Source: a virus
Taxonomy: Duplodnaviria > Heunggongvirae > Uroviricota > Caudoviricetes
Virus record (IMG/VR): IMGVR_UViG_2684623127_000007
Strand: one strand, 5' to 3'
DNA: 64,000 nucleotides
Below are positions 3,001 to 6,000 of this stretch, piece after piece. Position numbers: made by a program. Each line of letters starts with the position of its first letter. Position 1 is the first letter of the stretch.

Positions 3001-6000
3001 AGCCGCACTGCCAAACTGAACGCCGACTTCGTCGATGATCAGCAAATCCAGTGACGCATAATGCTCAATGACGTCATCCGCTGTTTTTTCACTGTCATTC
3101 CGCCAGCAGTTTTTCACAGCACGGGTAAGGCGCATCACGTCGGTGATCTCCACACTGGCCAGATAGTTACGGATGATGTGTTTTGCCATTGATACCGCCA
3201 GATGATTTTTCCCGGTACCGCAACTGCCGGTCATAACAAGACTGGTACCGTTCTCCAGCATATCTGGCCAGTTCTCCGCATAGCGGCGACAGGCCGCAAG
3301 ATTTCTGGCTGCGTCAGGATTAACCTCCAGATAATTATCAAACTCGCAGTCCCGAAAACGCAGAGCAATTCCGGCGTTATCAGTCAGTTCTTCCGCCTTG
3401 AGGGACGACAGCTCCATGGTCAAATCGTTGGCCTCAGCTATCAAGCAGTCAGGGCAGCATGAAATTTTTTCTCTGTCCTCGCCATTACGATCGCTCCACA
3501 CCAGAATATGTGTGTGGTATTCGCCATGTTTTTCGCAACACCCGCGCCCTTCACGCATCCAGCAGGAACGATAAGGCCATGGTTTTTCGCCCTTCTGAGC
3601 AAATGCAATCTCTGCCCGTAACTCATCCATCCGCGCCTGTAGTCTTGTTTGTTGTTCACGCAGGTTAAACGTCATCATCGCTGTCACCTCAGAATGTCAA
3701 TTTGTCACTGGATTTACCGAATTTGTCAGACATGGCTCCCAGGCCAGCCAGGACATCGACCTGTCGCTGTCGCCCACCTCCGGGAGCTGCTGGCTGTTGC
3801 CAGAAATCTTCGAAGTGACGATCGGGTCCAAAGAACGTCGACGCCTGCTTCACGAACTGGGTGCCGGTATTTCCTGAGACACGCACCCAGGCAGCATAGC
3901 GTTTCACACCGTTGAGCATGGTTTCTGGTGTCACACCTTCCCTGATTCGGGCTTTCCAGGCTTTGAAGGCTGCTGACTTGGAATTACCACCAGCACGTTT
4001 GGGATATTCCTGCCAGGCCTGTTCAAATTCCGGTGAATATTCCTGTCGGGCAGAACGCGCTGGTGCAGACGCGTCAGCGGATGCGCCAATAGTGTTTTTA
4101 CTCTCTGTAGTATTCTCTGAAGTAATCTCTGTTGTATTCTCTGTAAGATCGAAATTGGTTTTCCCTTCTCCGCGGCGAGTGGTTTCCCGTGTCCGCGGTG
4201 AAGGCTTTCCCTCCTCCGCGAAATTGGGTTTTACAGTTTCCCGAAAACGGGTTTCCCCATTTCGGGAAAACTGATTGTTTTCATTGATAATTTCATTAAG
4301 GCGCTCACAATCTATACGGTAGAACATTTTGTGCTCAAGACGCTTGTTGGTTTCAACCAAAATGCCTCTGGACACAAGATGCTTACGCGCTACAGCCTGT
4401 TGTTCAAATGTAAGTCCAGTTTCGTGTTGTATCTCTTCACGCGTTTTATGTACGCCTTCCGCTGCATGTGCTTTATCCTGCCAGTAAAAAATCTGACCAA
4501 AGAAAATAACAGCGTGCGGACTTCCCATGTATTTAACGAGCCCAGGGTAATAAGCAACCGGATGCCCAAAATCGAGCAGAAGATCAGACGGACGCATAGC
4601 CACCTCCCAGACGCTTAAACATTTTCCCGGACTGAAAAGCCACCAGCGGATAACTCAGGGTATGAGTACGTCCCTGAACCTGGCAGACAACCATCTGGCT
4701 TTCTGTATTGACCAGGCAAACCCGCAGAACGTGGCCGTTGCTGGTGGTGAACCACTGCCCCACACGGGGGCAACGGTTGTATCGGTGATACAGGGAATTA
4801 ACGACGCGGCGAATCATGGGCGCACCTCCCATTGATTACGGCGGAAAGCGGTGTGACTGAGGCTGATTTCTGCCTCATGGAATGCTTCAATGCAGCTCTC
4901 GTAGTACCGCATTGTGCGTAGACTTAACCCAAGCTGAAGCATCATCAGACCATCAAGGGTGATGTAATAACCACGCAGGGAGTCACCGTAGATGTGATAA
5001 GTACCCGGTATGAAATTGCGGGTAAAAAACTCGCGTGAGCAGTTCAGATACTCGATTTTGTCGACGATGTTCTGGTGCATGCGCTTAAAGTGGCAGGCAA
5101 CATGCAGGGAGAAAATAACGGCCTTGCCGTTGACAACTTCAATTTTCAGGTATGGGGAAGTTGGGACTGTAGCCATGATGGCAGCCTCCTTGAGCAGTGA
5201 AAAACTTCCACCACCGGAGCTGCGAAACTCATGGGTGGTGAACTGAACAGGGTTCGCAGTACCGGCGCTCAAGGAAACCGGCGAGCCTTTCGGCTCCCCT
5301 GCCCAGCCCACCATAATTCTGGCGTGCGCGAGCATGGACGATAAAAAAGACGCTGGCGCGTCGTATATCGCCTCGAGCAATTCCGGGCTGCGACCCCCGG
5401 CACCCGCTTTATAAGGTGCGGAGACAGTGTAACGTCCCGAAATTGCAGAATCAATATTTGGTCTTGAAATGATCATATAGCTGCTGATATCTTTAGAACT
5501 GTTCTTGGATGTTTCGGAGCCGTTTTATGCGAAACAGCTCCCCGTTATTGATGTTGAGTGAGCCGGGTTACTCCCGGCTTTTTTTCACCGCTGCCAACCA
5601 ATAACCTGAAATAACCCCATTTTCGGGTGATACCAGCGAGTCCCTCGCGGTTCTGCTTCCTCCATAACCCGATAAAAAGCAGCCATAAACGGTTCCACAG
5701 CAACAATTGCGCGACGTGACAACAATCCGTCCGGCGTCATGAACTCATGTGTGTCTGTAGGAATTTGATAGGCGTTCACCAGATTGCAGCATTTATCATC
5801 TGACAAACCGGTTTTTGCTTTCAGTTGGCGATATCCGGCATAGCCCTCACGAATAGTGCCCTTTTTAATTTGCTCAACTGTTTCAGCAACGTGGATGACT
5901 TTTTCTTCCACCTGAGTGATCCGTTTCTGTTGGCGAACGGCTTCAAGAGCCATCGCGGCAACCATTTCGATTTCGCTCATTGGCTTACGGATCTGTTCTT

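Follow-up and report, generated by a model that had tools for sequence, protein, structure and literature searches.

The replication origin of phage lambda consists of four 18-bp iterons and a 38-bp AT-rich tract inside the O gene (PMC3349717). A rep_origin is likewise annotated in gene 18 in the record of phage P22, where an AT-rich block of short repeats comes after TCGGTAAAAC units that are spaced at about 23 bp. In oriV of plasmid RK2, five initiator-binding iterons stand beside the four 13-mers of the unwinding element, which are bound as single-stranded DNA (ssDNA) by TrfA (PMC4980987). We have analyzed a locus of comparable layout in a 64,000-nucleotide stretch of DNA (the window, below) from the IMG/VR virus record IMGVR_UViG_2684623127_000007, a member of the Caudoviricetes. 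Positions 4097-4300 of the window, in the linker-coding part of an initiator gene, are very probably the replication origin of an Eru7-type Shiga-toxin (Stx) prophage. A lambda-style origin within this gene had been proposed in a first-pass annotation of the DNA, and gene context, a layout like that of the lambda and P22 origins and comparative sequence data all lend support to that proposal.

Read along the gene strand, an AT-rich stretch, a series of 23-bp units, a GATC and four 12-mers follow one another, all within codons of the initiator. The repeats occupy codons 109-167, the start of a linker (codons 109-184) that is predicted to be disordered. The elements are as follows.

4260..4300: AT-rich segment, short and promoter-proximal to the iterons; GC 0.25, the lowest of the region.
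4151..4275, minus strand: iteron array of five units in strict 23-bp register, starting at nt 323 of the gene.
4229-4251 and 4252-4274 (+ coordinates): the two degenerate iteron units, promoter-proximal and without TCCGCG.
4160-4182, 4183-4205 and 4206-4228 (+ coordinates): the three clean iteron units, TTTCCCNNNTCCGCG.
4234..4273: imperfect palindrome of 40 bp made by both promoter-proximal units, with arms at 4234-4251 and 4256-4273.
4147..4150: single GATC at the junction of iterons and 12-mers, in a context (TTCGATCYTACAGAGA) that is conserved in relatives.
4097..4144, minus strand: four tandem 12-mers with the consensus ACAGAGAWTACW, the candidate DNA-unwinding element.

On the plus strand TTTCCC is found at 4160, 4183, 4206 and 4252, and at 4237 in the degenerate unit that begins at 4229; the iteron core on the gene strand is GGGAAA, with a single inverted core at 4264. 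The three copies of TTTCCCNNNTCCGCG in the array are the only ones in the 64 kb. The first-pass annotation had listed four GGYTTYCC..TCCGCG units at a period of about 22 bp. The array is indeed present, with a corrected period of 23 bp, three clean and two degenerate units, and TCCGCG in three of them. Dyad symmetry in the three TCCGCG units is confined to the hexamer CCGCGG, and the two promoter-proximal units are jointly palindromic. Their palindrome, already noticed at first reading as an inverted repeat, folds as ssDNA at -13.8 kcal/mol (z = -4.87), and none of 200 shuffles folded as well.

The 12-mers read, in order on the gene strand, ACAGAGAATACA, ACAGAGATTACT, TCAGAGAATACT and ACAGAGAGTAAA (on the plus strand TACTCTCTGTAG, TATTCTCTGAAG, TAATCTCTGTTG and TATTCTCTGTAA, with TCTCTG at 4102, 4114, 4126 and 4138), and the array encodes TENT-TEIT-SENT-TESK. 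Three copies at a 12-bp period had been reported from 4105 onward; there are four units, only two of which are exact TATTCTCTG, and in codon register they extend over 4097-4144 and so begin earlier. Translation bears out the repetitive peptide TENTTEITSENTTESKNT that the repeats had been said to encode. The AT-rich stretch described at first reading can be refined to both flanks of the iterons (4260-4299, GC 0.25; 4080-4159, which holds the 12-mers, GC 0.33-0.40), against a GC of 0.65 in the iterons themselves.

Both arrays stand out statistically. Among 6,387 overlapping 130-bp segments of the 64 kb, the iteron stretch has the top autocorrelation (0.598 at lag 23; background 0.356 +/- 0.032), and the 12-mer array is the top 48-bp segment by the same measure (0.833). 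The next-highest short-period autocorrelation after the origin is found at about 28111-28430, 22981-23130, 47077-47130 and 49465-49530. Neither DnaA-box-like sites (TTATCCACA-like, with at most one mismatch) nor integration host factor (IHF) cores occur in 3900-4500, and an Rfam scan found no RNA family within the initiator gene. Matches to promoter and terminator consensus sequences in the region were at chance level, and GC skew is not informative at this scale. A terminator at the repeats was considered and rejected, the sole match being the antisense reading of the iteron palindrome.

The reading of this region as an origin draws on its gene context, a protein of PHROG replication-initiation families followed by a helicase loader and a helicase, downstream of cI/cro. 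The genes and the parts of the initiator are located as follows.

3689..4597, minus strand: initiator gene, 302 aa from the ATG at 4597; matches PHROG replication-initiation families.
4274-4597, minus strand: codons 1-108, predicted N-terminal winged-helix domain (AlphaFold2 model).
4046-4273, minus strand: codons 109-184, predicted disordered linker (AlphaFold2 model).
Codons 185 to ~270, minus strand: predicted helical C-domain (AlphaFold2 model).
2800..3687, minus strand: DnaC-like helicase loader gene, directly downstream of the initiator.
1403..2803, minus strand: DnaB-like replicative helicase gene (Pfam DnaB_C, E=3.1e-74, and a DnaB N-terminal domain).

The start of the initiator is the ATG annotated in identical GenBank phage records; the mechanically called open reading frame (ORF), 3689-4603, opens at a GTG at 4603. 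Its best PHROG match is to phrog_270, 'replication initiation protein' (E=2.6e-66), and it also matches phrog_9773, 'O-like'. Scans against Pfam and NCBIfam gave no match. Members of this family are named 'hypothetical protein' or 'DNA-binding protein' in GenBank and RefSeq, and 'replication protein O' or 'primosomal protein I' in GenBank phage records. The loader matches Pfam IstB_IS21 (E=3.3e-14), the Bac_DnaA ATPase and phrog_50, 'DnaC-like helicase loader' (E=1.6e-88); its match to the NCBIfam DnaC model is below the cut-off of that model. A 120-aa antisense ORF (3912-4274, plus strand), which overlaps the origin and the C-half of the initiator, is probably spurious.

An AlphaFold2 model of the initiator built on a 38-sequence alignment has predicted local distance difference test (pLDDT) values of 57-85 for residues 1-108, about 31 for 109-184 and 61-86 for 185-270, and is adequate for domain boundaries only; a single-sequence run (pLDDT 40) was unusable. 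In the model the N-domain contains helices at 53-60 and 64-76 and strands at 80-85 and 90-95, a predicted helix-turn-helix followed by a beta-hairpin wing. Winged-helix proteins (TFE-alpha, ArsR/SmtB, MarR) predominate among its top 50 Foldseek matches in the PDB, the best of which all have this fold; target template-modelling scores (TM-scores) are at most 0.65. A sequence search of the PDB with the initiator returned chance-level matches only.

Relatives of the initiator were collected by its N-domain. A first homolog search with the 110-aa N-domain yielded 19 proteins, mostly truncated; by tblastn, N-domain relatives with 26-62% identity were detected in Burkholderia, Pasteurella, Aggregatibacter (Aaphi23), Klebsiella, Acinetobacter, Salmonella and Vibrio phages, and a scan of viral contigs added N-domain groups at 85% and 65-69% identity. 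Twelve diverse relatives with 34-85% N-domain identity were compared, from E. coli, Klebsiella, Salmonella, Acinetobacter, Burkholderia and Pasteurellaceae. The strongest autocorrelation lag directly after the N-domain is 23 bp in all 12, and the sequences of the units differ. As a control, the same analysis recovered the four annotated lambda iterons (O nt 349-433) at spacings of 20, 24 and 23. Most relatives have the same 12-mer after the iterons; two Pasteurellaceae phages have instead a version with a 13-bp period, out of frame, in which the AGATTAC core is kept. Representative units are listed here.

Klebsiella: iteron unit GGGAAAGTCCATTCCGGGAAATG; 12-mer ACAGAGATTACT, three copies.
Acinetobacter: iteron unit CGAACGACGAAAACGCATTTCG; 12-mer CAAGAGAATACA, two copies.
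Burkholderia: iteron unit CTCGCCAACTGCGAAACCCGCAA; 12-mers GCAGAGACTACT and ACAGAGACTACA.
Salmonella 118970_sal3: iteron unit AGAATGTGGAAACCCCGCAATCT.
Salmonella: 12-mer CAGGAGATTACA.
Pasteurellaceae: 13-bp version CTAGATTACA (TTAATACACTAGA and TTACAACACTAGA).

These comparisons bear on the explanation that the repeats are a by-product of a repetitive, flexible linker (TExT and the like), arisen by slippage and with no cis-acting role for the DNA. The region does encode a predicted disordered linker, and the 12-mers are in frame and give TENT or TEIT in most relatives. Their copy number, moreover, varies from 3 to 5 among genes whose N-domains are at least 98% identical (variants L011, L063, L038 and L050 carry 3 or 5), as slippage predicts. 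However, 23 bp is not a multiple of three, so successive iteron units fall into all three reading frames and yield no repeated peptide; the periodicity is therefore kept at the DNA level, and it is kept in 12 of 12 relatives although both DNA and peptide change. The choice of synonymous codons in the 12-mers is also fixed across genera. Glutamate is encoded by GAG in 24 of 24 positions of the 12-mer arrays, compared with 80 of 196 elsewhere in the same genes, and threonine by ACA or ACT in 41 of 41, compared with 71 of 148; this holds in a Burkholderia phage too. The 13-bp period in the Pasteurellaceae likewise speaks against a repeat shaped by its peptide alone, and we consider a pure by-product of the linker highly improbable. 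The out-of-frame period and the fixed 12-mer codons point to selection that would act on DNA rather than on peptide, and the comparative data strongly favour a putative cis-acting DNA element evolving together with the N-domain.

Single-nucleotide differences among near-identical E. coli variants fall, by eye, mostly outside the GGGAAA cores; they are too few to test and were not used as evidence. In two viral contigs (L058 and L059) the iteron array opens with TTT rather than TTTT (gene nt ~325); this would shift the frame of the initiator and would mark either a pseudogene or a sequencing error.

The anatomy of the locus, its conservation and the constraint on the DNA are seen in the sequences; by analogy with lambda, P22 and RK2, we infer initiator binding, melting, helicase loading and origin activity at this locus. 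The winged-helix N-domain of the initiator would bind the five units, which are 23 bp (about two helical turns) apart, and a wrapped nucleoprotein complex would form, as with lambda O on its four iterons. The resulting strain would open the adjacent AT-rich block of four 12-mers, which would serve as the DNA-unwinding element. The opened 12-mers may be held as ssDNA by the initiator, for which TrfA at RK2 oriV is a precedent; O proteins also bind AT-rich ssDNA (PMC7466680). The C-domain of the initiator would then recruit the DnaC-like loader and the DnaB-like helicase of the phage onto the opened DNA. In the first-pass annotation both sets of repeats were called iterons. For the 23-bp units this name can be retained; the 12-mers are probably the unwinding element and not a second iteron set, because their position matches that of the AT-rich tracts of lambda and P22.

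In plasmids, centromeres and control sites can likewise consist of direct-repeat arrays to which winged-helix proteins bind. The array could thus be a platform for a process other than initiation, such as autoregulation of the initiator or copy-number control, a partition site or the target of another phage regulator, and plasmid iterons do serve in control as well (PMC4980987). However, no partition genes adjoin the array, and the iteron motif recurs nowhere else in the window. The array is moreover tied to the initiator N-domain in many phages, where an AT-rich block and then loader or helicase genes always come after it. We therefore give a non-initiation role very little weight.

The N-domain and the repeats are replaced jointly. 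L17 of phage phiP27 is nearly identical to the initiator from IGASADAS on, that is, from the first residue past the peptide encoded by the 12-mers (...TESKNT); its HTH_36 N-domain is unrelated, and its repeats are entirely different. Since L17 shares the C-half alone, N-domain and repeats appear to have been exchanged as one module. The mid-gene repeats of L17 (L009:2994-3181) comprise TTCAGATTCTGAAGG-like units that recur every 15 bp, plus CTTGCGGATCATGTTTTGAA twice at a distance of 24 bp, and are probably phiP27's own origin. At locus L050, the N-domain and iterons of the present family are kept, and the C-domain is switched right after three 12-mers. These junctions follow the arrangement that is classical for lambdoid phages, with N-domain and iterons as a single specificity module and a C-domain that belongs with the loader or helicase.

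When viral contigs were searched for two adjacent copies of the 12-mer, more than 120 matches were obtained, of which 80 were kept as loci. Nearly all lie in frame, midway along ORFs of about 270-390 codons. The initiator N-domain profile is matched by 39 of the 80; the rest make up at least three further N-domain groups, none of them with a Pfam model. Upstream of the 12-mers, 23 bp is again the top lag (53 of 62 distinct segments). The module of N-domain plus origin is present in 100 of 5,426 complete E. coli genomes, and about 1,300 further genomes match only 40 bp of the 12-mer array (~97% identity), inside other initiator genes. This 40-bp patch corresponds to 4111-4150 of the window, and is found elsewhere at L211:1201-1239 and in loci L090-L169. 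One such initiator type is that of a prophage in which the initiator lies downstream of a YdaT-family gene and has GGTCAAAATG units as its own 23-bp iterons.

From this distribution it could be argued that the 23-bp units are initiator sites and that the 12-mers are mainly a patch of homology for module swapping, with melting at 4260-4300 or elsewhere. The mosaic genes switch modules exactly where the 12-mers end (phiP27, and L050 with its different C-domain), the ~1,300 additional E. coli genomes share just the patch in initiators of other types, and at least three N-domain groups outside the initiator family profile carry 12-mers; the lowest GC of the region, besides, lies at 4260-4299. However, the AT-rich blocks of lambda and P22 are likewise on the promoter-distal side of the iterons, as the 12-mers are here, and the fixed codons together with the out-of-frame 13-mer suggest a sequence-specific function beyond homology. 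Roles as swap site and as unwinding element are, furthermore, not mutually exclusive. We regard a 12-mer block that serves mainly for recombination as unlikely, and retain it as the candidate unwinding element.

A broader role for the 12-mer may be put forward tentatively. It is used by at least four N-domain groups (three of them outside the profile of the present family), each with iterons of its own that are mostly at 23 bp, and with several different C-domains, and a near-identical 40-bp stretch of the array is present in roughly one in four complete E. coli genomes. Possibly, then, ACAGAGAWTACW is a portable, sequence-specific cassette for unwinding or helicase entry in a superfamily of temperate-phage initiators, and also the preferred crossover point between modules of origin and loader specificity, although we would not yet count on it. 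If this is true, a common partner would read the 12-mer, be it a shared feature of the initiators, the DnaB/DnaC machinery or a host factor.

The resemblance to the lambda origin extends to several features. Both lie within the linker-coding middle of the initiator gene, with iterons that start ~320-350 nt into a gene of ~900 nt (nt 349 in O, nt 323 here) at a spacing of 20-24 bp, and with an AT-rich block on the promoter-distal side. In lambda, too, N-domain and iterons make up the specificity module and the C-domain the module that contacts the loader (PMC3349717, PMC7466680). The lambda AT-rich tract contains TCAGAGAAT and AGATTAT, which resemble the 12-mer. Unlike lambda, the present locus has five units rather than four, its AT-rich block is made of ordered 12-mers, and it is accompanied by a DnaC-type loader and a DnaB-type helicase of the phage, whereas lambda uses P and the host DnaB. 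P22 shares with the present phage the annotated origin inside the initiator gene, the ~23-bp units followed by an AT-rich short-repeat block, and a DnaB-like helicase of its own (gene 12). It differs in that the N-domain of gp18 is lambda-O-like, there is no separate DnaC-like loader, and the AT-rich repeats are ACAAAAGACAAT rather than ACAGAGAWTAC. Aaphi23 and Pmp14 combine an N-domain of the present family with a P22-type right half and C-domain, and Aaphi23 shares the right-hand P22 sequence ...ACAAATACCCCC(C)TTACCCCC... The RK2 origin resembles the locus in its direct repeats beside four short tandem repeats; unlike it, origins of the RK2 type are intergenic and usually have DnaA boxes, and the initiator described here is of neither the Rep_3 nor the TrfA family. 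A literature search on Rac oriJ turned up no sequence-level description.

Several observations weigh against an origin of this kind. The three central iterons are without clear internal dyad symmetry of the sort typical of lambda iterons, and the AT content of the 12-mer block (60-67%) is only moderate in comparison with the 38-bp tract of lambda. In most relatives the 12-mers are in frame, which leaves room for a role of the peptide, and the Fisher tests of codon choice (p ~1e-9 to 1e-11) must be read with caution since the relatives are related and hence not independent. The structural matches of the N-domain to winged-helix proteins are generic and weak (Foldseek E >= 0.03). Finally, the initiator has no significant similarity to lambda O: BLASTP gives E=0.054, in the low-complexity linker only, and hhalign of the N-domain profile against lambda O gives a probability of 0.3%. 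Nor is there a match to Pfam PF04492 (Phage_rep_O) at E<0.01, a model that lambda O itself matches at 5.7e-36, and the N-domain is without detectable homology to it. In the first-pass annotation the initiator was described as O-like; by sequence it cannot be shown to belong to the lambda O family.

The Eru classification rests on two genes next to cI (Fagerlund et al. 2022; PMC8951638). In the window, from cI/cro downstream, the order is two Rha or Ash/Rha genes, a small ORF, the initiator, the DnaC-like loader and the DnaB-like helicase. The upstream features are given below.

5585-6328 and 4814-5476: ORFs of the Rha and Ash/Rha genes, with matches to Pfam Phage_pRha and Phage_ASH.
5231-5318 and 5343-5419, minus strand: Rfam matches to C4 antisense RNA and isrK, both within ORF 4814-5476.

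The Rfam matches are strong, both for C4 antisense RNA (RF01695, 84 bits, E=1.5e-16) and for the isrK Hfq-binding small RNA (RF01394, 56 bits). Together with Phage_ASH and Phage_pRha in the same ORF they suggest a control module of the antisense-RNA or antirepressor type upstream of the initiator. Over the 1.1 kb compared, the window matches a set of Stx2a/Stx2d-converting phages at 100% identity; Stx2_14040, the type phage of Eru7, is 97.5% identical across 84% of that query, and identity to the LC5678xx phages is 97.5-100%. The Rha and Rha/Ash genes directly after cI/cro and the near-identity to Stx2_14040 assign the prophage to Eru7.

Eru7 is reported to be Europe's most widespread replication type among Stx phages and is linked to Stx2a and to strains associated with haemolytic uraemic syndrome, and the authors of the Eru scheme write that, for Eru phages, nothing is known of the replication proteins (PMC8951638). 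In the literature that could be searched we came upon no description of the Eru7 origin, nor one of the 12-mer cassette, and the 12-mer or the TEITTE peptide, searched as text strings, led to unrelated papers only. The layout is that of a textbook lambda-type origin and was to be expected; what is new is its description for Eru7-type Stx phages. Phage replication drives toxin gene dosage after induction. A probable origin confined to 4097-4300, together with a named initiator, loader and helicase, provides concrete targets for electrophoretic mobility shift assays (EMSA), mini-replicons and work on inhibition. It also supplies a signature by which origins may be recognized in unannotated prophages, namely a winged-helix N-domain, then repeats with a 23-bp period, then ACAGAGAWTAC 12-mers, and this should be useful because the initiators of such prophages have no Pfam or NCBIfam model.

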